From NCBI GenBank assembly GCA_028715785.1, contig JAQURC010000006.1, forward strand, positions 21,630 through 85,629: DNA of 64,000 bases, written 5' to 3'. A program made the translations under genes and the position numbers. The notes below the pieces were generated by a model. The model worked only from the letters and a program-made list of their open reading frames with translations. It ran no database searches and was not told where the DNA came from. Below, in pieces: positions 1-15,713 of the stretch. Position 1 is the first letter of the stretch. Each line of letters starts with the position of its first letter. Source of the DNA: Candidatus Omnitrophota bacterium. Its GTDB lineage: Bacteria; Omnitrophota; Gorgyraeia; Gygaellales; Profunditerraquicolaceae.

Positions 1-917
1 TCGGCTCCATCGGTTTTAATTTTGGCACGGCAGACGTCCATCGTTACGATGCCCGAATCACTGATGCGGGAAAATTTTTACTTTTAGCCAGCGGGCAAAA
101 TACTGCCGAATTTATGGGCCGGGTGAATAAAATCAGGGCATTAATTGGCCAAGCTCATGAAAAAGGCGCAGCAGCATTCGTTGTTTCAGGCTTAAAGAAA
201 GATAAGATAGAACTGCTGCTGGAGGCAGTTAACAATGTGCTGCATAAAGGTGATAAAGTAGTAGTGGTGGGCGCTATCAATGCCTATCCTTTAGCCGCCG
301 AAGGAAAGACTACCGGTAAAATGGAGATTAAAAAAGACGCTTTGGAAACCTGGAAAGAAGTAGTTGAAGCGGCAAAAGCCAAAGGTATTGATTTATACTA
401 TCCTAAGGCGCTTAAAATAGTGAAAGATTTAACTACAGCGAAAAACGAAGATATTCAGGTTATTCAGGACGGAAATATTCCTGAGGATTATGTGATTGGC
501 GATGTGGCTGAACAGGGGCTTACAGAGATATTTAATATTCTTGAGGATGAGAATGTTAAATTGGTATTACAATCCGGCCCTGTTGGGCCGTTTGACTTAA
601 ATGATGTTCTCGCTGAAGGCAGTAACAAATTTCAGCAAAAATTGGCAGAGTTATCGTTAAAGAAAAAAGTAGTTTCTCTTGGTTCCGATACTCAAAAGGC
701 CAATAAAAAAGCAGGCGTGGAGGGCAAATTCCCCGATCAATTTACCGACGGCGGTTCGTTCCTTGATGCCTTAACTTGTCCGAAAGGCGAAGATTGTCCG
801 GCTATTAGCGCATTAAAAGAATCGGCAAAAATATATGCTGGGGTTTTAGCCAAAGATATTGAAAAAGAGGCCGAAAAAGTAGAAACGGCTGCAGGTGAAG
901 TTACGACAAAGAATTAA
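1..917 (+). CDS. Phosphoglycerate kinase-like protein, strongly divergent (5' end outside window)
   Basis: Frame 3 is open from nt 3, so the listed Met at 114 is internal. Collinear with PGK from the FGTAHR region onward: FGTADVHR; AAFVVSGLKKDKI (cf. VAIVGGSKVSTKL); QSGPVGPFDL (cf. WNGPVGVFEF); LGSDT (cf. GGGDT); FTDGGSFLDAL (cf. STGGGAFLEF). The Gly-rich nucleotide loops are substituted. Confidence 0.55.
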   Translation, partial: GSIGFNFGTADVHRYDARITDAGKFLLLASGQNTAEFMGRVNKIRALIGQAHEKGAAAFVVSGLKKDKIELLLEAVNNVLHKGDKVVVVGAINAYPLAAEGKTTGKMEIKKDALETWKEVVEAAKAKGIDLYYPKALKIVKDLTTAKNEDIQVIQDGNIPEDYVIGDVAEQGLTEIFNILEDENVKLVLQSGPVGPFDLNDVLAEGSNKFQQKLAELSLKKKVVSLGSDTQKANKKAGVEGKFPDQFTDGGSFLDALTCPKGEDCPAISALKESAKIYAGVLAKDIEKEAEKVETAAGEVTTKN

Positions 918-939
918 ATTTGAAAAAGTTGGCATAAAA

Positions 940-975
940 GTAGGGGGCGTTTAAACGTCCCCTACAATGTGGATA
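940..975. repeat. Family A hairpin (GTTTAAAC apex), copy 1
   Basis: GTAGGGGGCGTTTAAACGTCCCCTAC (940-965) followed by AATGTGGATAAC. Copy 2 shares the 3' flank TGTGGATAA. Confidence 0.8.
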
Positions 976-996
976 ACTAATAGCTCCGGGAAGACA

Positions 997-3900
997 ATGC
1001 GTAAATCAAAATTCAGCCCCTGGATAAGGTCTGTTGCTTTATTAGTAGTGGCTGTTTTTCTGCCGCAGCAGGTAATTTACGCCGGCAGCATCACCGATGA
1101 AATTACGTCTCGTCTCCCCAGCGTATCCAGCCTTAAATCAAGCGTTCAATCCACCATCTCCACCGCCCAATCCTATGTTTCTAAAGCCAATAGCGCCTAC
1201 ACTTCCGCAAGCAATGTTTACAACGCCGTAAAAGCCTCTACCGGCCTATCGGTAAGAAGCTTTGTCTCTCCCTTAAGCAGTATCAATGTCCAAACTATTA
1301 AAACTACTGCCGGCATAGCTACTGCCGCCCTTACCCGTAATCCCCAGGCAGGAATAGCCATAGCCAATACCAATTGGGCCAAGACGATATCTAATGGCCT
1401 TCCCGCAATAAAAAATTCTATTTACGATAAAGCAATCTGGGCAAGAGACCAGACTATATTCAAACCCGGTTTTAACGATAGCCCGGAAGGCCAAGAACAT
1501 TGGAAAGCTCTTGGCACAGCTTTTATCTTTATAACCGGCCCGGCTGGAGCAGCTGAAGGATTGCTTTCAAGCGCTGGCGGATTAGTGACTGTCAGTGTTG
1601 CCCGATACGCGCCTTCTTTAGCGATAAGAGGCGGTTCTTGGGCTTTGCAGGGCAGCCGGTTAATAGAATGGGTAGGGCCGAAAGTGGGGCAGGGCAGCAG
1701 TTGGGTATTTAATAGCCGGCCGGTCGCAGCTTATGGCAAATATGTGCTTGTGCCTGCGGGAATAGAGGTAATGGGTAATACTCTTTACGGTTATTCTCCG
1801 TTTAAATCCGTCGCGTTTACAACTTATAACTCTAATCAAGGGCAGATTACTAATTTGATGGGGGATATCAGCAGAAGGCAGCACTCGCTTGAGGCAGGGA
1901 GTTTTGCCGCTGAAAATTATGAACCGCTGATCAGCGATTTGTCAACCGCGTTTCCCGGTAACACTGCTACGCCCGAAGGAGTAAAGAGTTATTTACAGAA
2001 GAATGAAGGTAAATATCGCGGGGTTATATCCAATGATGCGCAGATTTCCTCCGATTTGGCAGTAATAAGTAATTTAAGCAACGACAATAAACACCAGGCA
2101 GGTAAATTCAATTCTTTTGAAAAAGGGTTTACTGCGTTGGCAGAAGTTAATTATGCCGCAGTTAACGCATTAGGCAATGGAATAAATAGTTCAGGTATTC
2201 CTCTTGCGGGTGAATTTATTAAATCCGTAGGTTCTTTTACCCCGCTTACCGGGCTTTCAATCGGCGGCTCTGTGGGCGCTGACCCCGGCCAAGGATTATA
2301 TGGTTTTGCGAATTTCTTTGCCAGTCCGGTTGAAAATGGTATTGGGCTTCGCGAAGGTTCAATTATTGAGCGTTTATCAAACCGCGAATTTTCGGCGCTT
2401 TTAACAGGCGCAGATTATCATTCTAATTATAGAAACCTTGGGAAAGCCGCAGGCAGCGCTTTTATTATGTTGGGCGGCGGCAGGCAGGTTTCAGGAGCGG
2501 CTAAGTCCGTGAAAGCAAAAGCAGGGACGTTAGATTCATTTTTGTCCGTTCATCCGGATATTAACGCTGTTGTAGCGCACCCTTACTTTAAACCCGCGGC
2601 GCACGCCTTAATATTGACCCTGCCGCTGGTGGGCGCAGCGCTATGGGAAGGTTATCAAAATAATAACTTAGGTAAACCTTTTGCTGCTACTACAGTGATG
2701 GCGGCAAATATGTTTGCGCCTTCTCTTGTTGCCAGGAGTAGATTTAATTCTAACCAGCAACTCGATCCTTTAATGAGTCCTAAAAACGATTTTCCTAAGA
2801 AATCCCCTATACCGGTGAAGAGTTTATTCGAGGATCAGGTAATGACTCTTAAAAGCATGGTTTCCAGCGGGACAAACGACCGCTTGGCGGTAATAAGAGG
2901 TTTAGGCACCGGTAAGACCACAGCCTTGTTAGCTTATATTTTGCCGTATAAAATAGGTGATAACCTAAAGAGAGGCAAGGGCACTCTTATATTGACTCCT
3001 AATGATGGGGTTACTAATGATGTGAAAGCGGTTCTCCGGGGGGCCAATGACGTTGGATTCAATCATCAAGAAATTCAGAAGCGGTTAGGAACAAATGTTA
3101 ATTTCCCTAAAGAGATAACTGAAAAGAAACTAAAAATTGAAAGTGTAACCAAAACTGAAGATAAACTTAAGCAGGAGCAGGATTTTATCGATAAGGTTAT
3201 GAATAATGATGTAGTGGTTATGCCGTATGAACTTTATAGTTCAATTTATCATACTTATTTAATGCGGCCAGGCCGAATGGACGCGGCCAGAGAAAAAGTT
3301 ATCAACAGGATTAAAGACAGTAATTTTCTTATGGATGAAGTTGATCTGCCCGCGTTTCTTCCTTCTTTGATGATGAGTGAGGGCAGAATGTATGTTCCTG
3401 AGGGTAATCCAGAATACAATTACTGGCAGGATGTGGCGGGGAAAAGCCGGCAGATTTATGATAAAGTTAAATATGACAAGGTTAATTCTAATGATATGAA
3501 ATTAGATAAGATAGAAGGCGAAACAAGCGCGGAATTAGAGTTTAGAACTATGGCTCAGGGGCAGAAGTTATTGAGTGAACGAATTCCGGGAATAGAAGAA
3601 TTGCCTTTGCCGGATTCCGCAACAGTGCGGAACTTAGTCCGGGAAATAAAAAATAAACATTCAGAAATAGGATACACTGACCAGGAAATTGCCGAGCATA
3701 TAGCCCATGGAACCTGGGGGTATCGGTCATATGAATTAAGAAACTCGTTTACTAAAGAAGAATACGCTGTTAAGACCGAGGCTGTTCCGGCAGCCGATAT
3801 AGATACATACGGTCCCAAAAAAGCTGTGGATACCGTAAAGATCGGAGGCGTGGAAGGCAGGGATATTCATAATTTTGATTTGCATATACCCGCGGGCCAA

Positions 3901-6513
3901 CAGCAAATCTTAGAAATACTTCACGGTGCCAAGCTTATTTCCCGGCCCTTAAAAGGGGATCATGTGGGTAACGCTATCGATGCTTTAGAAATATTAGGAG
4001 GTAGTATTGGATTCACAGGCACTGTTTCTGATACAGCCAAGCCTGTTCTTGAAAAAGCAGGCTTTACAAAGTTCGATTATGGGCAGGTAAAAGCTTCTGA
4101 TTACGAAGCCCCGGTTGTAAACGCAGATTTGAGCCAGACAATAAAGCAAGTCACAGATGGTATTGTCAATAACCGGGGGGATCGGCTTGATATCGATATA
4201 ACCCCGAATAATCCCCTTTCCCGTCTTATTAAAAAAGTTTTAATATCCAAGGGAATTGCTCCCGCGAAATTGGCAAAAGAGGGGGAAAATTATAAATTTA
4301 TAGAAGGAAAATATGTTCATATCGGAGGCCGGACTCCGGAAAAGGCTGCCCAGGCATTATTGGATTCTTTGAAAACCGAAAAAGCCCCTTATGCTATCGT
4401 CGGGACCGCCAATGAAATCGGCAGAGGCCTGAATTTTGATCCCGCGCCTTATTTAGCCAAAGATGGCACAAAAGTAGCGGTAAATCTTATTGAGCCGGAG
4501 TTGATGACCGCCACCCAGGTTAACCAGGGAGCGGGCCGTATCGGGGGGAAATTCCGATTTACAAATATAAAAGATAAAGAAGGTAATCTTCATAATCCGG
4601 AAAAAATCGTCCGCCTTCTGATGAGCAAAGATATGATGCGGCCAATGCCTGAATTTGAAGAAGCGCTGAAATTAGATAATTCTCAAGATGGTGTAAAAAG
4701 CCTTAAAATTATGGAAGCCCTGCAGGATGTCTGGAATAAAAACGAGAGAGAGGTAGTTGCCAGATCGGGCCTTTCTTCAGAGAGAATCGACAATAAAGTA
4801 GTGAAAAGTGAATTCAAGGAAGTAGATATGCCTACTACTTTGGAGGAAATAAAAGAGAAAGATGCCAAGGATTACCTTGTTTTAAAAGGCTACACGACTG
4901 AAAGTATTGTTAAAAAAGGAGAAGCATATATAAAGGAGAATAAGCTTACGATTAAGGGATTACGGTTTATGCAATTGCTTAAGGAGGCCGAGGCATTATT
5001 GGATAAGCAGCATAAGATTTTGGATAAAATTACTGCGCTTCGCATTTTGAATATAGATAATCCCGTCCAATTCGCGATAGGTTTGACTGAAAAGGGCATC
5101 GTAGAGCTTGAAGATTACAATAAGAGAGGGTTAACTTCCGTTATGTGCTTAGGAAGGGTATTAAAGCCGTTTAATACGGATATTTCAAGCGAAGAAATAA
5201 AACAATATCAGGATATCATAAGCAGCGCTTTGGAACAGAAGCTTGAATTCGTTGAAGGGCTGATAAATAAAAATAAGATAAAAATAGACGATAACGGGAC
5301 AAAAGAGTTAATTCTAAAGAAATTAGGGCTGCTAAGGGGCTCTTTAGCCAATATCCAGGAAATATCCCGTCAGATATCCGACGGATATGCTAAAAATAAA
5401 GGCACTGTTCTTCCAGCAGACAAGTTGCGTTTAAAATCCGCCTACCGTGAATTCGAAAATATTATGGCGTATCAGGATTTAGAGGATATCAGCGCTAAAC
5501 TTGGTTCTCCGGCAATAACTGACCTGATTCCTTTGTTTATTCCCAATGCCGGCACCGATGAGATCGCGAAATTCTCCGCGATTTTTGATTTTGCCAAGGA
5601 TAACAATATTAACTTGGCCCCGTATAATTTATTTGAATTGTTTAATTTGACTGACGGTAACAATAAAATTGATTTTGCCAAATTTATTGACAAGAACACC
5701 GGGGATCCGTATCTAAAAATCTATGCGCAACGATTAGCCCTTTATGAAAACGTTTTAGCCAAACAAATGCAATATTATATCCAATTATTTAGCGGAAAAA
5801 CAAAAGATGCAAAAGAATATGAACAGGGCTTGCAGGAAGATGTCGATTTCTTGAGGAATTTTGACATCGATCCAACAAGGGGCGCCCGGCTTAATTTAGC
5901 TCAACTAAGAAAATTGTCGGATGGAAAGCTCTCCGATAAATTATTGTTAAGAATTTATTTGGGTTTATGCGTTTCCGATGAAGAAATCGAAAATTTTATT
6001 CTTGACGAAGGAATTAATAATATAGTTTTAAAGAAAGAAGGATCGCAAGAAGTATCCGAGGCCTTGGCAGAACTAATTCGCCTTGGAAAATTATACGGGA
6101 TGGAAAGGGCAATAAGAGAGGTGCAGGCAAAATATGCCCCTGATGTAGTAAATGGAGCAATAAAGGAATATTTAGCAAATATAGGACAAGGAAAGTATTT
6201 CAGGCCCGAATACTTTAATACAATACAGGGGGGTATTATTGATGCGGTTTCTACCCTGGCGCCTTTAATAAATAGAGAAGGAGCGATTAACGCAGCTGCG
6301 GTTATGGGTATAGGCCTTCTAAGATATCCGGTTTCAGCAAGTTTTAAGGCTATTACCGAGGCAATTTTTAATACCAATTCTCCGGAGCAACGGCTTCGGG
6401 CTATCAGCGATATCAAAGCAACCCTTGACATCCTTCCTCCAACAGTATCAACCGCGCCTGCCTTACCAGCAGTCGATTCGAAAACAGTTGAAGTGGCCGA
6501 AACCGCCGTATAA
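997..6513 (+). CDS. Giant (~1840 aa) membrane-anchored protein with SecA-like DEAD-motor ATPase core
   Basis: Uninterrupted ORF (track 967..6513). Met at 997 is preferred because 940-975 belongs to a repeat hairpin. Signal anchor RSVALLVVAVFLPQQVIYA, then ~600 aa of S/T/A/G-rich sequence with hydrophobic helices. Motor motifs follow: GLGTGKTTAL (Walker A), GKGTLILTPNDGVTNDV, FLMDEVDLP (Walker B), GFTGTVSD, IVGTANEIGRGLNF, QGAGRIGG. Long helical C-terminus. Confidence 0.6.
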   Translation: MRKSKFSPWIRSVALLVVAVFLPQQVIYAGSITDEITSRLPSVSSLKSSVQSTISTAQSYVSKANSAYTSASNVYNAVKASTGLSVRSFVSPLSSINVQTIKTTAGIATAALTRNPQAGIAIANTNWAKTISNGLPAIKNSIYDKAIWARDQTIFKPGFNDSPEGQEHWKALGTAFIFITGPAGAAEGLLSSAGGLVTVSVARYAPSLAIRGGSWALQGSRLIEWVGPKVGQGSSWVFNSRPVAAYGKYVLVPAGIEVMGNTLYGYSPFKSVAFTTYNSNQGQITNLMGDISRRQHSLEAGSFAAENYEPLISDLSTAFPGNTATPEGVKSYLQKNEGKYRGVISNDAQISSDLAVISNLSNDNKHQAGKFNSFEKGFTALAEVNYAAVNALGNGINSSGIPLAGEFIKSVGSFTPLTGLSIGGSVGADPGQGLYGFANFFASPVENGIGLREGSIIERLSNREFSALLTGADYHSNYRNLGKAAGSAFIMLGGGRQVSGAAKSVKAKAGTLDSFLSVHPDINAVVAHPYFKPAAHALILTLPLVGAALWEGYQNNNLGKPFAATTVMAANMFAPSLVARSRFNSNQQLDPLMSPKNDFPKKSPIPVKSLFEDQVMTLKSMVSSGTNDRLAVIRGLGTGKTTALLAYILPYKIGDNLKRGKGTLILTPNDGVTNDVKAVLRGANDVGFNHQEIQKRLGTNVNFPKEITEKKLKIESVTKTEDKLKQEQDFIDKVMNNDVVVMPYELYSSIYHTYLMRPGRMDAAREKVINRIKDSNFLMDEVDLPAFLPSLMMSEGRMYVPEGNPEYNYWQDVAGKSRQIYDKVKYDKVNSNDMKLDKIEGETSAELEFRTMAQGQKLLSERIPGIEELPLPDSATVRNLVREIKNKHSEIGYTDQEIAEHIAHGTWGYRSYELRNSFTKEEYAVKTEAVPAADIDTYGPKKAVDTVKIGGVEGRDIHNFDLHIPAGQQQILEILHGAKLISRPLKGDHVGNAIDALEILGGSIGFTGTVSDTAKPVLEKAGFTKFDYGQVKASDYEAPVVNADLSQTIKQVTDGIVNNRGDRLDIDITPNNPLSRLIKKVLISKGIAPAKLAKEGENYKFIEGKYVHIGGRTPEKAAQALLDSLKTEKAPYAIVGTANEIGRGLNFDPAPYLAKDGTKVAVNLIEPELMTATQVNQGAGRIGGKFRFTNIKDKEGNLHNPEKIVRLLMSKDMMRPMPEFEEALKLDNSQDGVKSLKIMEALQDVWNKNEREVVARSGLSSERIDNKVVKSEFKEVDMPTTLEEIKEKDAKDYLVLKGYTTESIVKKGEAYIKENKLTIKGLRFMQLLKEAEALLDKQHKILDKITALRILNIDNPVQFAIGLTEKGIVELEDYNKRGLTSVMCLGRVLKPFNTDISSEEIKQYQDIISSALEQKLEFVEGLINKNKIKIDDNGTKELILKKLGLLRGSLANIQEISRQISDGYAKNKGTVLPADKLRLKSAYREFENIMAYQDLEDISAKLGSPAITDLIPLFIPNAGTDEIAKFSAIFDFAKDNNINLAPYNLFELFNLTDGNNKIDFAKFIDKNTGDPYLKIYAQRLALYENVLAKQMQYYIQLFSGKTKDAKEYEQGLQEDVDFLRNFDIDPTRGARLNLAQLRKLSDGKLSDKLLLRIYLGLCVSDEEIENFILDEGINNIVLKKEGSQEVSEALAELIRLGKLYGMERAIREVQAKYAPDVVNGAIKEYLANIGQGKYFRPEYFNTIQGGIIDAVSTLAPLINREGAINAAAVMGIGLLRYPVSASFKAITEAIFNTNSPEQRLRAISDIKATLDILPPTVSTAPALPAVDSKTVEVAETAV

Positions 6514-6801
6514 TGCATACAGATAACCCTAAATTAATTGATAAGCCATATTTAAAAAGGCGAGGGAAAATGAAATTTATTTCCACGGTCGTAAAAATTA
6601 CCGGATATAGAACCCGCGCAGGAGATAAATGAGATTGTTAAAAATGACGCTGATTTAATTTCCAAGTTTATGGATAGTTTTATTTAAGGTTTTTATGTTC
6701 TTTGAAAATATCGGGCCAAATTTTTTCTTGATTAATTTGATAAATAAAGGATAATATGCGTAAGTTCACTTGGCTCACTAGGTTAGGGCGGGGAGAAAAA
6801 G

Positions 6802-7497
6802 ATGGGCGAACGCAGAAAATTAGCCAGATGGCAGGTAAATCAACACGCCGCGCTTAAATTGGAGCAGGCCGCCGAGGAATTATTCTGCCAAATCAAGGAT
6901 ATCAATTCTAAAGGGGCAAGGATTACTTTAAATACAAAATTGCCGCAGGATAGCCGGCTTAAGATGAGTTTACGGCTCTCTGAAAATTATGCCGTTGAGG
7001 CGGAAGTTTGGGTTGCCTGGCACAAGGTTATTAACGGCATTAACCACTACGGGCTTTATTTTAGCAGGATAAAGGATGCGGATAAGGATAAAATTTATAA
7101 ATTTATCAACAGGTATCGTTCTAATGGTTTGAAACAGGAACCGTCGCCGGCAGCTGCAAGGGTTGAGAAAGAGAAAGGAGGTGAAGGGATGCATGACCAT
7201 CGGATATTCGAAAGGTTCAGGAAGGAATTTTCCGCCCGCTTTATCGGCTTAGACGGAAAAGAGGGGCAGGCTCAAACATTTGATGTAAGCGCAAAAGGCC
7301 TGGGGTTATCAACCACAAATGAATTGGAATCCAAGACTCCTCTAGAGATCTGGTTGGATGTTCCTGGCAGCACCGATCCTTTATACACAAGGGGGCAGGT
7401 TGTCTGGTCAAGGTTGGCAGGGGTAAGCGGATATCGTTCGGGTATCGAATTGGAAAGGGCTGATCTTATGGGTGTTTCGCGCCTCCTGCGCGCCTGA
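6802..7497 (+). CDS. Tandem PilZ-domain protein (c-di-GMP receptor)
   Basis: Two PilZ signatures. Domain 1: RRKLAR (RxxxR) plus DINSKG (variant DxNxxG). Domain 2: RIFER (RxxxR) plus DVSAKG (DxSxxG). Confidence 0.75.
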   Translation: MGERRKLARWQVNQHAALKLEQAAEELFCQIKDINSKGARITLNTKLPQDSRLKMSLRLSENYAVEAEVWVAWHKVINGINHYGLYFSRIKDADKDKIYKFINRYRSNGLKQEPSPAAARVEKEKGGEGMHDHRIFERFRKEFSARFIGLDGKEGQAQTFDVSAKGLGLSTTNELESKTPLEIWLDVPGSTDPLYTRGQVVWSRLAGVSGYRSGIELERADLMGVSRLLRA

Positions 7498-7615: not shown

Positions 7616-8914
7616 ATGTGGTTTAAGAACATACTTCTGGGTATTTCTATATTATTTTCAGCATTAGGCTGTTCGGGCCAAAAAGTTGATTCCAAACCCA
7701 CCATAACTATCTGGCACTGGATGACCGACCGCGACGCAACCTTCCAGGATCTGGCAAAAAAATATGAAACTTTAACCGGCGTAAAAGTAAATTTCGAGCT
7801 TTATGCCCCTTCGGACGCTTATTCACAGAAGATCCGCGCCGCAGCCCAGGGCATAAACCTTCCGGATGTTTTTGGCATTTTGGGAGAAAAGAGGGATTTT
7901 GCTTCTTTTATCAAAGCCGGCCACATTTTAGATCTTACCTCCTATATGGAAGCCAATAATAACGGTTGGAAGAACAGTTTTTTCCCCAAGGCGCTGGCGG
8001 TAAATGAATTTGCCGCAGGCAATAGTTATGGGATAAATCCCGGCACCTACGGTGTCCCTGTCGATATTATGACCATCCAGATGGTCTATAACAAAAAACT
8101 TTTTACGCAGTTGGGATTAAATCCCAGCCGGCCTCCGAAGACCCTCCAGGAGTTTTTAGATATCGGTCCGAAAATCCAGGCCGCCGGAATGCAGGGGCTG
8201 GTTTCCGGATGGGGCGAGGTTTGGATGATTGATTGCCTGGCCAATGACTATGCCTTCAATATTATGGGTAAAGATAAGGTAATGGCGACGATCAGGGGCC
8301 AGGTCCCTTATACCGATCCGGATTGGGTCAAGGTATTTTCTATCTTTAAGCAGATGCAGGACTCCGGTGTTTTAGCCAAAGGCCTGGTAACCATGATCAA
8401 TAAATCCGCCGAGCAGCTTTTTGCCAATGAAAAAGCTGTTTTTGCTTTTAACGGTTCCTGGTGCGTGAATGTTTATAAGGGGATGAATCCTAATCTTGAA
8501 TACGGGGCAATACTTCCGCCGCAGGCCTCTGACAAATATCCGATGTCTATCTGGGGCGGGGCAGGTTCTTCTTTTATGGTCAACGCGCGTTCTAAAAATA
8601 AGGAAGAAGCAATTAAGTTTTTAGTCTGGCTGACCGGCCAGGACCAGCAGGCATATTTATCCAGGGCCACCAATAACCTGCCTGCCAACAAAAACTGTTT
8701 GGCTAAGATCCCCGAGGTGCTTGCCCAATTTGCCCGCGGCATGGAGTATGCCACCCATCCGAACGTCTGGGGGGTTTCGGAGTTTTCTTTGGTCATCGAG
8801 GCTTTTGACCGCGGTATCCAATCCATCATTATCGGAGAGAAAACCCCCGAGCAGGTTGCTGATGAAGTTCAGAAAGTAAAGGAAAGGGAATTAAATAAGA
8901 GAAGAGCCAAATAG
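7616..8914 (+). CDS. Sugar ABC transporter substrate-binding lipoprotein (family 1 SBP)
   Basis: Lipobox LFSALGCSG. Sequence has general family-1 extracellular solute-binding character. GGAAGGAG RBS. Followed by two permease genes. Confidence 0.85.
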   Translation: MWFKNILLGISILFSALGCSGQKVDSKPTITIWHWMTDRDATFQDLAKKYETLTGVKVNFELYAPSDAYSQKIRAAAQGINLPDVFGILGEKRDFASFIKAGHILDLTSYMEANNNGWKNSFFPKALAVNEFAAGNSYGINPGTYGVPVDIMTIQMVYNKKLFTQLGLNPSRPPKTLQEFLDIGPKIQAAGMQGLVSGWGEVWMIDCLANDYAFNIMGKDKVMATIRGQVPYTDPDWVKVFSIFKQMQDSGVLAKGLVTMINKSAEQLFANEKAVFAFNGSWCVNVYKGMNPNLEYGAILPPQASDKYPMSIWGGAGSSFMVNARSKNKEEAIKFLVWLTGQDQQAYLSRATNNLPANKNCLAKIPEVLAQFARGMEYATHPNVWGVSEFSLVIEAFDRGIQSIIIGEKTPEQVADEVQKVKERELNKRRAK

Positions 8915-8917
8915 TCA

Positions 8918-9811
8918 ATGACACACAAATCAATGAAGCTGAAAGATACATTAGAGAATTACACCTTTGTCCTGCCGGCAGTAACCATATTTTCCATATT
9001 CTATATTATTCCTTTTATCTGGGTTTTTCAGTTGGGCCTCTTTGATTGGGACGGGATCTCTTTTAGCAAGACGTTTGTGGGCTTGGCAAATTTCAAAGAG
9101 ATCTTCCTGCAGGATAAAAACTGGTGGCAATCGATGTGGAACGCCGGTTACATCACTTTGATCGCCCTTACTTTTCAGAATATCCTGGCTTTTATGCTCG
9201 CCTGGGCCTGCGACCGCGAAATGAGGATGAAAAATTTTTACCGGGTGATTTTTTTTATCCCTCCGGTCCTCTCGGAAGTGGTCGTGGGCATGGCCTGGCG
9301 TTTTATCATCAATGACATCGACGGGGCGAATGTCATCAATCGCACGCTTACACAAATGGGTTTTCCGCATTTAGTGCATAATTGGTTATCCGACCCCAAC
9401 ACCGCACTTACTACCGTTGCGATTGTGCATTGCTGGAAGGGTTTTGGCTGGGGGTTCCTGATTTTTCTGGCAGGTCTGCAGACCATACCGCGCGAACTTT
9501 ACGAAGCCGCCCGGGTTGACGGGGCAAGCGCCTGGCAGTCATTTAAAAAAGTAACCATACCTTTGATGATCCCGGTGATGGTGCTGGTGGCCATCCTTAC
9601 GGTATTGGGCACGATGCAGGTGTTTGTATTGATTGTCAGCCTGGTGGGAGGCGAATTTGCCGGGCATACTTCGGTTCCGGTTTTAAGGATCCTGGCTTCT
9701 ATGCGCGGCTCATCGCGTTTTGGTTATGCCTGCGCCCAGGGGATTACTTTCGGTCTGGTATTGATTATAATATCTTTTATCCAATACCGTTTTTCCAAAA
9801 AAGGGCAATAG
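8918..9811 (+). CDS. Sugar ABC transporter permease (MalF/UgpA-like)
   Basis: Six-TM profile with EAA loop region ELYEAARVDGASAWQSFKKVTIPL. Confidence 0.85.
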   Translation: MTHKSMKLKDTLENYTFVLPAVTIFSIFYIIPFIWVFQLGLFDWDGISFSKTFVGLANFKEIFLQDKNWWQSMWNAGYITLIALTFQNILAFMLAWACDREMRMKNFYRVIFFIPPVLSEVVVGMAWRFIINDIDGANVINRTLTQMGFPHLVHNWLSDPNTALTTVAIVHCWKGFGWGFLIFLAGLQTIPRELYEAARVDGASAWQSFKKVTIPLMIPVMVLVAILTVLGTMQVFVLIVSLVGGEFAGHTSVPVLRILASMRGSSRFGYACAQGITFGLVLIIISFIQYRFSKKGQ

Positions 9812-9817
9812 AGTTAT

Positions 9818-9860
9818 CAATGTAGCGGAGGTTTAAACCTCCGCTACATTGTGGATAATT
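9818..9860. repeat. Family A hairpin, copy 2 (between the two permease genes)
   Basis: CAATGTAGCGGAGGTTTAAACCTCCGCTACATTG is a perfect 34-nt palindrome, followed by TGGATAAT. Confidence 0.85.
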
Positions 9861-9886
9861 TTCAAGAAAGGCCAGTGAGATAAAGA

Positions 9887-10735
9887 ATGATGAACTCATT
9901 TTATTATAAGGGTAAAAAGATCGTGGTAAATACGCTGATCCATCTTTTCCTGATTAGCGTGGCAATAACCTGTCTTTATCCGCTGCTTTGGATGATCGTT
10001 TCAAGCCTTAAAACCCAGGATATGATCTTTAAGGATATTTCTTTGATCCCGCATCAGTTCCGCCTGGAGAATTATGTCCTGGCCTGGAAAGAAGGGGGAT
10101 TCGGCGGAAACTTTTTTAACAGTATTATTTATACCGTTTCGGTAGTCTTCGGGATAGTGATTATTTCTTCCATGGCCGCCTATGCTTTCAGCCGCTTACG
10201 TTTTGCGGGAAGTAAATTTTTGTTCATCATGTTTATGGCGGCAATGATGATCCCCATCCCGGGAAGTTTTGTCGCCCTCTATGTTTTATTAAATAAACTG
10301 CATTTAAGGAATACTCCCATCGGTTATATTCTGTGCATGATTAACGTGGGGCTCTCCACCAGCATATTTTTGCTGAAAACTTTTTTTGATAAGATGCCCA
10401 AGGAGCTGGAAGATGCCGCGCGCATCGACGGCTGCTCGAAAATCGGGATTTGGTGGCATGTTGCCCTGCCGCTGGCCAAGCCGGTGCTGGCGGTGGTGAT
10501 TGTTTTTAACGCTTTAGCCGTATGGAACGAATATATCCTGGCGCTGATTATTTTTGATAACCGCAAGTTCATGCCGCTTCAGGTGGCCTTGCAGTCTTTT
10601 CAGGGCGAGTTCGTCACCAATTATCCGCTGTTAATGGCCGGATTGACGATTACGGCCCTGCCGATTATTTTAGTATATCTTTTTATGCAGAAGTATATTA
10701 TCAAGGGCGTTACCCAGGGAGCGGTAGTAGGATGA
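9887..10735 (+). CDS. Sugar ABC transporter permease (MalG/UgpE-like)
   Basis: EAA loop ELEDAARIDGCSKIGIWWHVALPLAKP. Multi-TM. Confidence 0.85.
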   Translation: MMNSFYYKGKKIVVNTLIHLFLISVAITCLYPLLWMIVSSLKTQDMIFKDISLIPHQFRLENYVLAWKEGGFGGNFFNSIIYTVSVVFGIVIISSMAAYAFSRLRFAGSKFLFIMFMAAMMIPIPGSFVALYVLLNKLHLRNTPIGYILCMINVGLSTSIFLLKTFFDKMPKELEDAARIDGCSKIGIWWHVALPLAKPVLAVVIVFNALAVWNEYILALIIFDNRKFMPLQVALQSFQGEFVTNYPLLMAGLTITALPIILVYLFMQKYIIKGVTQGAVVG

Positions 10736-13119
10736 GTTGTATAAATTTAAAATTTAATGTGTCATTGCGAGCCCGCAGGGCGAAGCAATCTGGGCTTGGA
10801 TTGCTTCGTCGCCTTCGGCTCCTCGCAATGACACTGCCAGTGTTTTTCATTTGCCAATGTACTGACGTGCTGGCTTCCCAGCCTGTTCCTCCCGCTGCTA
10901 CCGCCAGGCCTTCCTCAAGCGAGTTGACCACTAAGGCCTGGATTGCCCACGGCAAAAGGGATATCGAGGCGACGAATAAATACACTCAGGAATGTATCGA
11001 TCTATACAGTTTCCAAGCGGATAAAGAGCAGGCAGCTTTAGCCGCATTGCCTAAGAATAAAAAAGAGATCGAGGCGGTGCAGGTATTAAACGATGTGGCT
11101 ACCTGTTATTTTATTCAGGCTGAGGGCCTGATGCGCCAGCAAAAAATCGATGAGGCCAAGAAAATATTTAAATTGATCATCGATAAATATTCTTACGGAC
11201 AAGCCTGGGACCCGCGCGGCTGGTTCTGGTCGATAAAACTGGCTGCCGAACAAACGATCAAAAAAATCGAAACCGGCTCGATAGAAGTGGAGCAGAAGAA
11301 AAAAGTCAGCCAGCTTGCGACAAAATTGACTTTATTCGATCCGGGTAAAGAAGAAATTGTCGATTACGCAAAATACGGCGAGTTTCAAAACATCGGGACC
11401 AAAGATTATCAGTATGTTGTCGGCGACCAGAAGGGTTTAATCGAGGCAGCCGGAGAAGGCGTCTACCCCAATAACAGCGCAGTCAGGAAAGACCCGATTT
11501 TTAAGCAGGTGATTAAAGACAAGCGCCTGGAGGGGGATGTCTGGGATTTTCTTTATTCCCCGGATCTAGAGGCGGCATTTGTCAAATGGACAACCTCCAG
11601 CGAGCCGCAAGGGGTGAGATTATATGGCACCGGTTTGATTTTGGAGAAGGCCGGTTTAATCACCCAGGCGATCAAATGCTATTATTCGATTGTCGTGCAT
11701 TTCCCCGGCAGCTACGGCTGGACTTACTGGCATACGCCTTGGTATGTGGGCCAGGCCTCGATTGCCAAAATAAATTTTCTTCTCAGGCGCAACCCGCAGT
11801 TAGGTTATAAACTGGAAGGCGCGCAGATCGATATCATCAATGGTTTTGATAATGATATTTCCAATGATGTTGCGGTGGCTAATCCCGGCAAATTCGTGAA
11901 AGTTGATATGGGCCAGGAAGCGGCCAAGGCCAGGCCTACGGCTGAATCCGTGGGGATTAAAAAGAAGGTAGGACGCGGCAAGGTGCGTTTAGTGCAGTAT
12001 AATAATAATGACTGGCAGCTTCTGGTCGAGGACAAGCCTTATATTATTAAAGCGGTTACTTACGCTCCCACTAAGGTTGGCCAGTCTCCGGATGACGGAA
12101 CGCTTAAGAACTGGATGGAGGAGGATTTGAATAAAAACGGCAAAATCGACGGCCCCTATGATGCCTTCGTGGATAAGAACAGGAACAACATCCAGGATGC
12201 CGATGAGCCGTCGGTCGGTGATTTTAAATTGATGCAGGATATGGGTATTAATACCATACGCCTCTACCATCATCCTTTAAAGGTAAACAAAGAATTAATG
12301 CGCGATATGTATAATGCTTATGGGATAGGCGTAATTATGGGGGATTTTTTAGGTAAATATGCCATCGGCTCCGGGGCTGCCTGGAATCCCGGGACCGACT
12401 ATAACAATGAAGCGCAAAAGAAGAAAATGATCGAGTCGGTCAAAGGGATGGTCAATGAATTTAAAGACGAGCCCTACATTTTATTCTGGCTCCTGGGCAA
12501 TGAGAATGTTTACGGTTATGCCTGCAACGCCAATGAATACCCGGAAGCTTATTTTAAATTCGCCAACGAGGTGGCCAGGATAATTAAGTCTATCGACCCA
12601 AATCATCCGGTAGCCATATGCAGCGGCGATATTTTATTTCTGGATAAATTCGGCAAGAGCGCCCCGGATATAGATATCTTCGGTACCAATGCCTACCGCG
12701 GGGATTATGGTTTCGGCGCTTTTTGGAGGCAGGTCAAGGAACAGGCAGGCAAGCCGGCTTTTATCACCGAGTTTGGCTGTCCGGCATACGCTGAAGGGAA
12801 AAGTGTCGATGAAGCCGAGGAGCTGCAGGCGCAATATCATTTGGGTTCCTGGGAGGACATTCAGGATAATATGGCGTTTGGCGGCACAGCAGGTAACGCA
12901 ATAGGCGCAGTGATCTTTGAATGGCTGGATGAATGGTGGAAGGCTTATGAGCCGGGGATCCATGACACCAAGGGTTTGTGGACCGGGCCGTTTCCCGACG
13001 GATATATGCATGAGGAGTGGCTGGGTGTCAGCGGCCAGGGGGATGGAAAACTAAGCCCGTTTTTGCGGCAACTGCGCAAAGCGTATTATATGTATCAGAA
13101 AAAGTGGAAACAGAATTAA
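10732..13119 (+). CDS. Clan GH-A (TIM-barrel) glycoside hydrolase, secreted; family unassigned
   Basis: GINTIRLYHH, WLLGNENVY (acid/base NE), AFITEFGCPAY (nucleophile E), FEWLDEWWK. ATGA overlap with the permease stop. Codons 1-32 lie inside a repeat element, so Met at 10828 is an alternative start. Confidence 0.6.
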   Translation: MSCINLKFNVSLRARRAKQSGLGLLRRLRLLAMTLPVFFICQCTDVLASQPVPPAATARPSSSELTTKAWIAHGKRDIEATNKYTQECIDLYSFQADKEQAALAALPKNKKEIEAVQVLNDVATCYFIQAEGLMRQQKIDEAKKIFKLIIDKYSYGQAWDPRGWFWSIKLAAEQTIKKIETGSIEVEQKKKVSQLATKLTLFDPGKEEIVDYAKYGEFQNIGTKDYQYVVGDQKGLIEAAGEGVYPNNSAVRKDPIFKQVIKDKRLEGDVWDFLYSPDLEAAFVKWTTSSEPQGVRLYGTGLILEKAGLITQAIKCYYSIVVHFPGSYGWTYWHTPWYVGQASIAKINFLLRRNPQLGYKLEGAQIDIINGFDNDISNDVAVANPGKFVKVDMGQEAAKARPTAESVGIKKKVGRGKVRLVQYNNNDWQLLVEDKPYIIKAVTYAPTKVGQSPDDGTLKNWMEEDLNKNGKIDGPYDAFVDKNRNNIQDADEPSVGDFKLMQDMGINTIRLYHHPLKVNKELMRDMYNAYGIGVIMGDFLGKYAIGSGAAWNPGTDYNNEAQKKKMIESVKGMVNEFKDEPYILFWLLGNENVYGYACNANEYPEAYFKFANEVARIIKSIDPNHPVAICSGDILFLDKFGKSAPDIDIFGTNAYRGDYGFGAFWRQVKEQAGKPAFITEFGCPAYAEGKSVDEAEELQAQYHLGSWEDIQDNMAFGGTAGNAIGAVIFEWLDEWWKAYEPGIHDTKGLWTGPFPDGYMHEEWLGVSGQGDGKLSPFLRQLRKAYYMYQKKWKQN
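10759..10834. repeat. Family B ~75-bp nested palindrome (GTGTCATTGCGAG ... CTCGCAATGACAC), copy 1
   Basis: Outer arms GTGTCATTGCGAG/CTCGCAATGACAC and inner arms CGAAGCAATC/GATTGCTTCG. Overlaps the 5' end of the GH ORF. Confidence 0.85.
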
Positions 13120-13133
13120 AACGGAGGTGTAAG

Positions 13134-14282
13134 ATGAGAAAGTTGTCAGCAGTATTACTGGCTTTAAGTCTTTTGGTCCCGGCAATGGCCGCTTCCGAAG
13201 AAAAAGCCGCAGGCCCCAAGGAGTTTGTGGTCTACTTGGATAAAAACGCCAAGGAGAATCATTATATTCCTAGCGGCTGGATGGGTGATTACGGCGATAT
13301 CAAAATGAATGACCAGTCAGCGGATAATCCGCATGGCGGGACAACCAGCATTCAATTCATTTATAGCGCCAAGAAATCACAGAATCAGGGTTGGGCCGGA
13401 GTTTACTGGCAGAATCCTTCGAACAACTGGGGAAACAAAAAAGGCGGTTTTGACTTGACCGGCATGACCAAACTTACTTTTTGGGCCCGCGGGGCAAAAG
13501 GCGGTGAAGTGATCCAGAAGGTGATGGTCGGCGGGATCAAGGGGACATATCCTGATACCGCGATGGTGGAGATGGGGCCCATTGAATTGACCAATGCCTG
13601 GAAACAGTATACGGTTAATTTAGTAGGTAAGGATCTTTCTTATGTTAACGGCGCTTTTGGCTGGACTTCAACCGCCGATTTAAATCCGGAGGGAGCCGCG
13701 TTTTATATCGATGATATAAAATTTGAGGCGGATGCGGCTTTGAAACCCGAGGGTAAAAAACAACAGGCAATGCCGTTCTATATTTATGCCGACCGCTCAA
13801 CCGCAGCCAACCATTTTATACCTAGCGGCTGGATGGGCGATTACGGCGATATAAAATATGACGGGGCTTCCAAAGAAGACCCGTATTTAGGCGATACTTG
13901 CGTTAAAATAATCTACAACGGAAAAGCCGCCCAAGGCGCGCGCTGGGCGGGGATTTTCTGGCAGAATCCGGCTAATAACTGGGGCAGCGTTGATGCGGGT
14001 TTTGATCTTTCCAAAGCCGCCAAGCTTACTTTTTGGGCCCGCGGGGCAAAAGGCGGAGAACGCATCGAAGAGTTCAAGGTCGGCGGGATTATGGGGGAGT
14101 TTTCGGATTCAGACAGCGCGACCATCGGCCCGGTCCTCTTGAATAAAGAGTGGACCCAATATACTATTGATTTAAAAGGCAAAGATTTGTCGTATGTTAT
14201 CGGCGGTTTTTGCTGGTCGGCAAATGTGGACAACAACCCGGAAGGCGCTACATTCTATCTGGATGAGATCAAGTTTGAATAA
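13134..14282 (+). CDS. Secreted protein with two tandem CBM-like beta-sandwich modules
   Basis: GGAGGTG RBS and signal peptide MRKLSAVLLALSLLVPAMA. Two ~170-aa modules share H(Y/F)IPSGWMGDYGDIK, WAG..WQNP.NNWG, KLTFWARGAKGGE and NPEGA.FY.D.IKFE. A 32-nt DNA stretch is identical at ~13474 and ~14024. Confidence 0.5.
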   Translation: MRKLSAVLLALSLLVPAMAASEEKAAGPKEFVVYLDKNAKENHYIPSGWMGDYGDIKMNDQSADNPHGGTTSIQFIYSAKKSQNQGWAGVYWQNPSNNWGNKKGGFDLTGMTKLTFWARGAKGGEVIQKVMVGGIKGTYPDTAMVEMGPIELTNAWKQYTVNLVGKDLSYVNGAFGWTSTADLNPEGAAFYIDDIKFEADAALKPEGKKQQAMPFYIYADRSTAANHFIPSGWMGDYGDIKYDGASKEDPYLGDTCVKIIYNGKAAQGARWAGIFWQNPANNWGSVDAGFDLSKAAKLTFWARGAKGGERIEEFKVGGIMGEFSDSDSATIGPVLLNKEWTQYTIDLKGKDLSYVIGGFCWSANVDNNPEGATFYLDEIKFE

Positions 14283-15540
14283 TAAAAATAGTAATTACAA
14301 AGCTACAGGTTACAGGCATTTCTTGCTTGCAGCCTGTAGCTTTTTGTTTGTATTTATTTTGTCCGCCTGCCAGCCCAAGCAAGGCGCCTATATCCAAAAG
14401 TTAAAAAATCAACACTACGTTCTTATCGTAAACGCCCGGCCGTATATCGTCAAAGGAGTTTGTTATAACCCCATCCCGATAGGTTCAAATCAGGAGTATG
14501 ACTGGTGGGGTGATCCGAATAAGCCCTGGATTACCGACGGCAAACTGATGAAGGATATGGGGGTCAATACTATCCGTCTTTATCAAGCGCATGAGCATCC
14601 CGAAGAAGTAAGGCAGGTAATCCGGGATTTATATAATTTATACGGCATCCGGACACTCCTGGGCGACTGGCTGGGGTTCTGGGAATACCCCTGTCCTTTT
14701 TACGGCGACCAGAAATTCCAGGATAAAGTAAAGGCTCAGGTGTTGGAGATGGTCAAGCTTTATAAAGATGAGCCCGGGATCCTCGGATGGATTTTAGGAA
14801 ATGAGAATAATTATTCCTGCCTGGGGCATGTCAATCCCTGGTCAAGCCCCGAGGTTGACCAGGAAACAAACCCCCAGAAACAAAAAGCGCTGCGCGCAAA
14901 AATTTATTATTCTTTTGTAAATGATATCTCCAAGGAAATACATAAAATCGACTCCAGGCATCCGGTAGGGTTAGGCAACGGGGAGTTGGTGGGGTTGGAT
15001 TCTGCCGACAAATTTTGCCGGGATGTTGATTTTGTGGCCTGTATAATTTACCGCGGCAAGACCTTCGGCAATCTTTTTAGATCCCTCAAGATGACATTCG
15101 ATAAGCCGGTATTATTGTCCGAATTCGGCGCGGATTGCCACGATGCCTACTTAAAAAAAGAAGACCAGAATATGCAGGCGTTCTTCCTGCAATCCCAGTG
15201 GCAGCAGATCTACGAAAACTTAGCCAATAATAAAACAGGGGCGGGCAATTGCATAGGCGGGACGGTTTTTGAATGGACGGATGAATGGTGGAAGCACAGT
15301 TCGGATAATCCGGAAAGCTGGAAGGTCCATGACACCGAAGGCGGCTGGTCCAACGGCAGTTATTATTTTGACATAAAAGTCCCGGGCGGCATGAATATGA
15401 ACGAAGAATGGTTCGGTATATGCGCTTTATCGGAAAACCTTGAAAATGGTCTAAATAAACGTATCCCGCGCAAGGCCTATTATGTTATCAGGGAATTCTG
15501 GAAGCATCCGGTAATTAAAAAAGCGCATAAGAAAAAATAA
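14263..15540 (+). CDS. Clan GH-A glycoside hydrolase lipoprotein, paralogue of 10732..13119
   Basis: VNTIRLYQAH, WILGNENNY, VLLSEFGADCH, FEWTDEWWK; lipobox FILSAC. The start is uncertain: track 14194 overlaps the previous gene, and Met at 14263 or the in-frame TTG before LAAC are both possible. Confidence 0.6.
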   Translation: MRSSLNNKNSNYKATGYRHFLLAACSFLFVFILSACQPKQGAYIQKLKNQHYVLIVNARPYIVKGVCYNPIPIGSNQEYDWWGDPNKPWITDGKLMKDMGVNTIRLYQAHEHPEEVRQVIRDLYNLYGIRTLLGDWLGFWEYPCPFYGDQKFQDKVKAQVLEMVKLYKDEPGILGWILGNENNYSCLGHVNPWSSPEVDQETNPQKQKALRAKIYYSFVNDISKEIHKIDSRHPVGLGNGELVGLDSADKFCRDVDFVACIIYRGKTFGNLFRSLKMTFDKPVLLSEFGADCHDAYLKKEDQNMQAFFLQSQWQQIYENLANNKTGAGNCIGGTVFEWTDEWWKHSSDNPESWKVHDTEGGWSNGSYYFDIKVPGGMNMNEEWFGICALSENLENGLNKRIPRKAYYVIREFWKHPVIKKAHKKK

Positions 15541-15551
15541 TATAGTTAGGC

Positions 15552-15698
15552 GTGTCATTGCCGGGAGCGCAGCGGTTGCGAGGCGAAGCCGAAGCAAACC
15601 AGCAGCCCCTCGCAACTGGATTCCTTCGCTTCGCTCGGAACAGGCTGCGCAATCCAAAGCGAGATTGCTTCGGGCACTTCGTGCCCTCGCAATGACAC
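15552..15698. repeat. Family B composite (~147 bp) with a nested variant unit
   Basis: Same outer termini (GTGTCATTGCC ... CTCGCAATGACAC). The interior contains a second unit with arms GGTTGCGAGG/CCTCGCAAC plus the GAGATTGCTTCG inner arm. Confidence 0.75.
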
Positions 15699-15713
15699 TA
15701 AAGGGGAGGCAAT

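Follow-up and report, generated by a model that had tools for sequence, protein, structure and literature searches.

Very large proteins of the phylum Omnitrophota are the closest described relatives of the system presented here. Divergent versions of the SecA DEAD and preprotein-binding domains are encoded in most of these giant proteins (West-Roberts et al. 2023, bioRxiv 10.1101/2023.11.21.568195). According to the same study, these domains are devoid of scaffold and wing, lie beside transmembrane regions, form a long-branch clade and occur alongside a canonical SecA in the genomes concerned, and it was proposed that they may export the giant protein that carries them. The same giants hold TIM, GPI, FBPase, PGM/PMM, aldolase (FBA) and PPDK domains, which are puzzlingly predicted to be extracellular (bioRxiv 10.1101/2023.11.21.568195). 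A 2026 preprint reported a PF07517 architecture cluster and a "multi-enzyme metabolic" class of long proteins, class 1 (bioRxiv 10.64898/2026.06.07.730766). Here, we describe a gene in a 64,000-nucleotide (nt) stretch of a Candidatus Omnitrophota genome (hereafter the window) that encodes a protein of 1,848 amino acids (aa), hereafter the giant. We interpret it as a putative stand-alone, highly diverged member of the SecA-like modules of very large Omnitrophota proteins. The original prediction, made from the sequence of the window, found no described system in which to place it; like domains are in fact reported in both preprints. The kind is thus already known, and the clade of the window protein represents it in small and split form, with greater divergence.

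Judged against the published description, the giant comes from the same phylum and carries a divergent region of apparent SecA_DEAD/preprotein-binding type without scaffold or wing. Comparison by description with the SecA-like modules of giant proteins ("Archaeovorins", dockerin-type) revealed further common traits: a fast-evolving motor of apparent SecA type with an insert at the position of the preprotein cross-linking domain (PPXD), hydrophobic or membrane-associated sequence before the motor, and associated domains of the TIM, GPI, PGM and PPDK types. Export of the protein itself or of its partners is the proposed role for both. Unlike these modules, which are parts of proteins of >10-30 thousand aa (kaa), the window module is a separate gene of 1.8 kaa. 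It is also too diverged for Pfam PF07517/PF01043, and its enzyme domains are encoded by neighboring genes, unlike those of the published giants. Its N-terminal domain (N-domain) and C-terminal region have relatives only within a clade of about 8 proteins. Where the published modules adjoin transmembrane regions, the window giant shows one strong N-terminal and four marginal hydrophobic segments.

Outside these cases, SecA is a housekeeping motor that hardly varies. The motif order of canonical SecA (E. coli b0098; PDB 2fsf, 3bxz, 1m6n) is also that of the giant: GxGKT, GKG..T.ND, DEVD, a ~200-aa insert, G(M/F)TGT, GRG and QxxGR. The giant differs from canonical SecA in having its own signal/anchor, a 570-aa N-domain and a 650-aa unrelated C-terminal region. 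Identity between the two is ~12-23% over aligned columns, and the giant falls below the Pfam gathering thresholds.

The giant is encoded by an open reading frame (ORF) at 967-6513 of the window, on the + strand, as are all features described below up to position 10735. It is 100% identical to PHP73_05600, a hypothetical protein of a Candidatus Omnitrophica metagenome-assembled genome. Translation probably begins at the ATG in position 997 (M11), since the homologues start with MxKSKFSPW. The ORF and every motif quoted in the original prediction are present. The first part of the SecA-like nucleotide-binding domain 1 (NBD1; aa 625-800, 2839..3366) aligned by hhalign to E. coli SecA 95-212, and it contains the Walker A motif GLGTGKTT (aa 645-652; GLGTGKT at nt 2899-2922), the segment GKGTLILTPNDGV (aa 670-682, nt 2974-3012) and the DEVD box FLMDEVD (aa 787-793, DEVD itself at aa 790-793; nt 3325-3345). 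As in the SecA NBD1 motor, both nucleotide-binding motifs are in place, with GLGTGKT and DEVD of the giant aligned to MRTGEGKT and DEVD of SecA. The insert at the PPXD position follows (~205 aa, aa 801-1006, 3367..3984), and it includes the segments EEYAVKTEA (nt 3757-3783) and PAGQQQILEILHGAKL (nt 3889-3936). Motif III and the second RecA-like domain occupy 3985..4611, with motif III GFTGTVSD at aa 1015-1022 (nt 4009-4032), motif V VGTANEIGRGLNF, including IGRGLNF, at aa 1145-1157 (nt 4399-4437), and motif VI QGAGRIGG at aa 1187-1194 (nt 4525-4548). This second domain was modeled by AlphaFold2 (AF2) with a predicted local distance difference test score (pLDDT) of 70-85; IGRGLNF and QGAGRIGG are the features expected of SecA NBD2, though they are generic to superfamily 2 (SF2).

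The evidence that the core is SecA-like came from the comparison of profiles. A 9-sequence family profile (A4/A6) aligned by hhalign to residues 95-476 of E. coli SecA over ~340 collinear columns (score 54-57, Prob 85-87%, E 4-6e-6), passing through Walker A, DEVD, the insert and GMTGTA. Along this alignment GLGTGKT of the giant was paired with RTGEGKT of SecA, GKGTLILTPND with GKGVHVVTVND, MDEVD with VDEVD, EEYAVKTEA with DYIVKDGEV, EGRDIHN..PAGQQQILEILHGAKL with TGRTMQG..SDGLHQAVEAKEGVQI, and GFTGTVSD with GMTGTADT. Against the same profile, 80 shuffled SecA sequences scored 17.4 ± 2.7 (max 26.5) and reversed SecA scored 15.6. The SF2 controls UvrB, RhlE, RapA and RecQ scored 36.3, 33.2, 25.6 and 23.1, respectively, with alignments of <=125 columns, none of them in the insert. 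The insert aligned with SecA 213-385, and its part matching SecA 294-385 was recovered by every alignment tried (Prob 44-87%). From the DEVD box to GFTGT the giant has 221 residues, which upholds the predicted insertion at the PPXD position, in a region where the AF2 model has a pLDDT <50. The SecA signal was absent with 3- and 4-sequence profiles, whose hhalign comparison with E. coli SecA gave no match, and arose once remote relatives from an exhaustive search joined the alignment. Among the relatives of the giant, P0013 has a weak Pfam SecA_PP_bind match (E 0.02), and L013p carries ELRTGGGKT, very close to EMRTGEGKT of SecA. T. thermophilus SecA (2ipc) weakly matched the insert region at E 0.12.

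The core certainly belongs to SF2. With moderate confidence, and through profile-profile comparison only, we assign it to the SecA type within that superfamily. No helical scaffold, wing or IRA1 two-helix finger was detected in the giant, as the hhalign match ends at SecA 476; Pfam SecA_SW had no match in it; and the last 60 residues contain no cysteine, so that the Cys-rich SecB/Zn-binding tail of SecA is absent there.

Around the motor, the giant consists of regions peculiar to its clade. The N-terminus (997..1086) comprises a K/R-rich n-region and a hydrophobic core at residues 23-38, after which comes IYA followed by G (CLA followed by G in relatives). It looks like a cleavable Sec signal, because the hydrophobic core is short and is succeeded by this site. 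Residues 23-41 are the only strongly hydrophobic stretch of the giant (family mean Kyte-Doolittle 1.95). The other hydrophobic segments (182-212, 252-277, 541-562 and 570-588) are marginal, at 1.0-1.4. Because of this, the signal/anchor is clear and a multi-pass membrane domain is not: the signal anchor first proposed stands in the segment at 23-41, the hydrophobic helices proposed behind it are marginal, and a membrane-integrated topology is not established.

The lineage-specific N-domain (aa 41-611, 1087..2799) is rich in S/T/A/G, as had been noticed (35-43% over residues 1-600), is predicted to be all-helical and includes the four marginal segments. It is conserved at ~50% identity across 7 homologues. 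Its AF2 model had a pLDDT of 39 and was unusable. Behind the motor, the C-terminal region (aa 1216-1786, 4612..6324) is mostly helical, in agreement with the helical sequence initially described there; AF2 placed helices at pLDDT 70-90 at about aa 1290-1610. This region had no Pfam match, and no relative was detected outside the family. The protein ends in a conserved tail (aa 1787-1848, 6325..6510) that contains AIFNTNSP and LPPTVSTAPALP.

The family is rare. A word-indexed search of 5.8 billion proteins retrieved six homologues of the giant, all from Omnitrophota, which fall into group A (P0001-3, including the window protein) and group B (P0004-7). When 1.84 billion cluster representatives were searched exhaustively with HMMER, the group A core being the query, only eight proteins emerged, fragments and the 5,845-aa P0011 among them. 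A profile of the N-domain added one further protein, a fragment, from 5.8 billion sequences, and the N-domain was found in only 3 of 185,579 species genomes. Widening the search with the core profile gave no new homologue. A metagenome scan with profile A7 detected two more long-ORF relatives of the core on JGI contigs: L013 (Ga0315281_10000490, 131-7198; 2,355 aa, E 1e-85 to the A6 profile) and L012 (Ga0207433_10008088, 3-5891; at least 1,963 aa, E 6e-65 to A6). Neither protein has a SecA Pfam match, and their remaining domains are unannotated. Relatives of the giant span 1,641 to 5,845 aa. The largest, P0011, has the same SecA-like core at about residues 2240-2800 (EMLGTGEGKG, IVDEFD, GLTGTLS, GRGTNI and QGMGRVAG). 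On either side of this core lie true transmembrane helices (1424-1450, 3481-3583 and 5064-5082), and its Walker A reads GKG, not GKT. A profile of the giant's N-domain had no match to the transmembrane regions of P0011.

Groups A and B have in common the N-terminal ~600 aa (~50% identity) and the last ~60 aa, and they differ in their middle regions of ~650 aa. Despite these non-alignable middle regions, the C-terminal tail is 65-67% identical between the two groups. Group B proteins are positional orthologues of the window giant in four loci (L004 10001-15277, L005 10001-15277, L007 10001-15070 and L008 3097-8397). They keep the N-domain and the tail around a ~690-aa middle without a proper Walker A (EMSGGKMDG). 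By eye, this middle could be taken for SecA-like (EMSGGKMDG, YWITSDKEGKYVDYRIADSDGTE.., FGSATTEG); that reading was rejected, as no profile ties group B to group A or SecA. The middle region of group B represents either extreme divergence or domain replacement.

Six related loci show the giant flanked by fusions of 900-3,000 aa that combine GPI, TIM, GAPDH, PGK, enolase, PPDK and iPGM domains, so that the gene neighborhood is conserved in relatives. In L003, the order is GPI-TIM-PGK-enolase (3,050 aa), giant, iPGM (1,567 aa) and PilZ, while in L002 GPI-GAPDH-TIM-PGK (2,964 aa) precedes the giant. L004 and L005 display a PPDK megaprotein, TIM-GAPDH-PGK or TIM-PGK (1,493-2,182 aa), giant, PilZ, solute-binding protein (SBP), permeases and a glycoside hydrolase (GH). 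L007 encodes GPI-TIM-PGK (1,894 aa), enolase (877 aa), giant and iPGM (900 aa), and L008 encodes enolase (967 aa), giant, iPGM (891 aa), PilZ, SBP and a permease. Genes of the cluster are tightly spaced, and the stop of the giant overlaps the iPGM start in L003, L007 and L008. BLAST of the giant against the neighboring megaenzymes found no similarity.

In the window, the gene upstream of the giant is cut by the edge. The original prediction had taken its end (114-917) for a separate, degenerate PGK paralogue, but the frame is open from base 3, and 3..917 represents the 3′ terminus of a gene for a multi-enzyme megaprotein. It holds the C-terminal, nucleotide-binding half of PGK (positions 181-377 of 379 of Pfam PGK, E 1.7e-22), and the last 30 aa of its product share 77% identity with the end of the 1,493-aa TIM/GAPDH/PGK protein of L004. 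In relatives, the gene at this place encodes a multi-enzyme protein of 1,493-3,050 aa, with the PGK domain terminal or internal. The 49-nt spacer between this gene and the giant gene includes an inverted repeat read from the sequence, GTAGGGGGCGTTTAAACGTCCCCTAC (940..965), which is a near-perfect hairpin, GTAGGGGGCG-TTTAAA-CGTCCCCTAC, with no T-run after it. A scan for promoters and terminators had an outcome no better than that of shuffles. Downstream, the window retains a deletion remnant of the iPGM megaprotein gene (6513..6687), whose ATG overlaps the TAA of the giant. The first ~25 codons (MHTDNPKLIDKPYLKRRGKMKFIST) survive, together with the last ~29 codons in another frame, which end in NDADLISKFMDSFI and the stop. 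This scar was identified against the translations of the intact genes L003 12926-17686, L007 15070-17772 and L008 8397-11072. A similar iPGM scar is present in L005 at about 15271-15990. Further along the window, amid ordinary housekeeping genes, a second large ORF (35748-40094, + strand; 1,448 aa) had no Pfam match at E <= 0.001.

All megaenzymes of the cluster have a short N-terminal signal peptide whose last residues are (S/G)YA before (A/G). The genes concerned are those at L003 12983-, L004 5497-, L005 3428-, L007 1620-, 7319- and 15070-, and L008 166- and 8397-. Most megaenzymes display a D(K/N)LR(x)P (DKLR-type) motif after the signal peptide, where the giant has A followed by G(I)TDEIxSRLP. 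The signal peptide and D(K/N)LR(x)P may together constitute a lineage-specific sorting signal for normally cytoplasmic enzymes. Like the class 1 multi-enzyme giants (bioRxiv 10.64898/2026.06.07.730766), the neighbors of the giant fuse many sugar-metabolism Pfam domains with weak partial matches. They differ from class 1 in being 0.9-3 kaa rather than >=10 kaa, in holding glycolysis/gluconeogenesis enzymes only, and in each having its own signal peptide.

Based on these findings, we tentatively postulate, at a little short of an even chance, that the giant is a membrane-tethered SecA-type ATPase devoted to the very long exported proteins encoded next to it. Its architecture would be that of a Sec-type signal/anchor, a ~570-aa clade-specific helical N-domain, a SecA-type DEAD motor and a long helical C-terminal region that replaces the scaffold, wing and Zn-finger parts of SecA. 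The N-domain, and not SecY-binding parts as in SecA, would tether the giant at the cytoplasmic membrane with its motor in the cytoplasm, where ATP might be used to unfold, feed or assemble the neighboring megaproteins, its candidate clients for ATP-driven translocation. The intact Walker A (GxGKT) and DEVD of the giant are counted in favor of a motor. Such a role would be akin to that of accessory SecA2 in handling large substrates. The idea is in line with what has been suggested for the SecA-like domains of giant Omnitrophota proteins. SecA2 of Gram-positives and mycobacteria (PDB 4uaq, 6t4h) is likewise a specialized SecA-type ATPase encoded next to very large export substrates, and SecA2 structures were among the fold matches of the giant. 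The analogy has limits: SecA2 retains a scaffold domain and has SecY or SecY2 as its partner, whereas no SecY2 or Asp-like partners were found in the loci of the giant, nor any secY-like gene in the six loci inspected.

Several observations weigh against this interpretation. The hhalign result depends on the alignment: with 11 sequences, which include L012 and L013, the match to SecA weakened to Prob 44-65% over SecA 294-480 and tied with a P-loop match to UvrB. Scans with Pfam (E <= 0.1) and NCBIfam (E <= 1) assigned the giant to no family, with no PF07517/PF01043 or other SecA model, and the homologues had no SecA match in these scans beyond that of P0013. The SecA-type core that had been predicted from motifs is borne out by profile-profile comparison to a moderate degree, and family models do not recognize it. 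Searches of PDB sequences with phmmer and hmmsearch (the protein; profiles A2, A3 and A6) returned nothing significant. The AF2 model has a mean pLDDT of 60, with NBD1 and the insert <50, and fold searches do not part SecA from Snf2, DEAD or Brr2 ATPases. Were the signal peptide cleaved, the ATPase would come to lie outside the cytoplasm, since no transmembrane helix of the giant is convincing, and ATP has no obvious source there. An ATPase is not essential at the position of the giant, because the middle region of group B lacks a proper Walker A and is unrelated by profile. Finally, the cluster is evolutionarily labile, as its downstream iPGM gene was deleted in both the window and L005.

Some of these observations would fit a different role, in which the giant is an exported structural or scaffold part of a cell-surface "coat" formed with the megaenzymes, and its SecA-like core is a relic without motor function. 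We consider this unlikely. A signal-peptide-like N-terminus with no robust transmembrane helix behind it and an export signal common to all cluster proteins are what such a coat would have, and group B keeps precisely the N-domain and tail around a middle that is unrelated or degenerate. Motor motifs are also eroded in the remote relatives: the motif VI arginine is missing from P0010 and P0012, and P0011 reads GKG in place of GKT. On the other hand, the window protein, P0002 and P0003 retain Walker A, DEVD, motifs III and V and one arginine of motif VI, all intact, which argues for selection on catalysis in group A. Moreover, no function outside the cytoplasm is known for glycolysis-like or ATPase domains.

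Another possibility is that the giant acts on nucleic acids, as an ordinary SF2 helicase or translocase of the DEAH/NS3 or Snf2 kind whose insert is specific to its lineage; its likeness to SecA would then be convergent or generic. We regard this as rather improbable. In Foldseek searches with the AF2 model, the top three matches were SecA from three species, with Brr2, BLM and Eta close behind; the E-values of Brr2 and BLM were within a factor of two of that of SecA. The first rank of SecA agrees with the assignment to SecA, and so narrow a lead supports "SF2" only. The family profile matched flavivirus NS3 P-loop regions among PDB sequences at E 0.003-0.1, and weak Pfam DEAD/Flavi_DEAD matches occurred in P0002, P0003, P0008 and P0011, those of the close homologues P0002 and P0003 near Walker A. 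Together with the UvrB tie, these results speak for a helicase. Yet only SecA aligned through the insert and motif III (294-480), and it did so in all alignments, while the other proteins matched at the P-loop or a generic NBD2. The insert of the giant stands exactly where SecA has its own, between motifs II and III. An export signal and enzyme neighbors with signal peptides are unlike those of an enzyme acting on DNA or RNA, and no nuclease, methylase or other nucleic-acid partner was found in any of the 6 loci.

The original prediction also linked the giant to a neighboring protein with two PilZ domains, which would possibly place the motor under cyclic di-GMP (c-di-GMP) control. The neighbor itself is as described: a tandem-PilZ protein of 231 aa (6802..7497) that matches Pfam PilZ twice (E 4.6e-20). 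Its second domain has the canonical RxxxR and DxSxxG motifs (RIFER and DVSAKG), and the first domain has RRKLAR, with DINSKG off register; the motifs are those of a putative PilZ c-di-GMP receptor. Orthologues with 70-88% identity lie downstream of the cluster in L003, L004, L005 and L008, and PilZ is kept in 5 of the 6 informative loci, L007 having none within 1.4 kb. An iPGM megaprotein gene, or its remnant and a ~290-nt spacer, separates the giant from PilZ. The genes that directly follow PilZ encode ABC sugar uptake, with one SBP and two permeases in the window (7616..10735; Pfam SBP_bac_1, SBP_bac_8 and BPD_transp_1), and the order is the same in L004, L005 and L008. As PilZ always stands directly before these genes and never adjoins an intact giant-iPGM pair, its link to the giant is weak and it goes with the ABC sugar transporter, so the functional connection first drawn is not supported; control of the giant by c-di-GMP is thus very improbable. 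Past the ABC genes, the window encodes a TPR plus GH2/GH72-like glycosidase of 795 aa, and then more ORFs (10732-13119 and 13017-15540). The same genes of the glycosidase block are present in L004 and L005; therefore, the sugar-uptake/glycosidase block is syntenic with the megaenzyme cluster.

Hardly to be credited is that the whole cluster is exported, its ATP-yielding lower-glycolysis modules (GAPDH, PGK, iPGM, enolase and PPDK), which have one and the same signal peptide, forming an extracytoplasmic ATP-regenerating layer that powers an exported SecA-like motor, by which an ultrasmall, possibly predatory cell would pull or unfold polymers outside the cytoplasm, for example at host contact.

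Overall, the original prediction was largely correct as an observation; its SecA-like interpretation is partly supported, and its PGK and PilZ parts are in need of correction. The fast-evolving SecA copies of Omnitrophota normally reside inside genes too large to clone, and here such a module appears as a separate 1.8-kaa gene with its catalytic motifs intact. As a separate gene, the module would be experimentally tractable through ATPase assays, topology mapping and co-expression with a megaenzyme. The clade offers natural "ATPase-less" positional orthologues and a small, defined set of candidate clients next door. Finally, the export signal on glycolysis-like megaproteins sharpens the puzzle of where the enzyme domains of these bacteria work.

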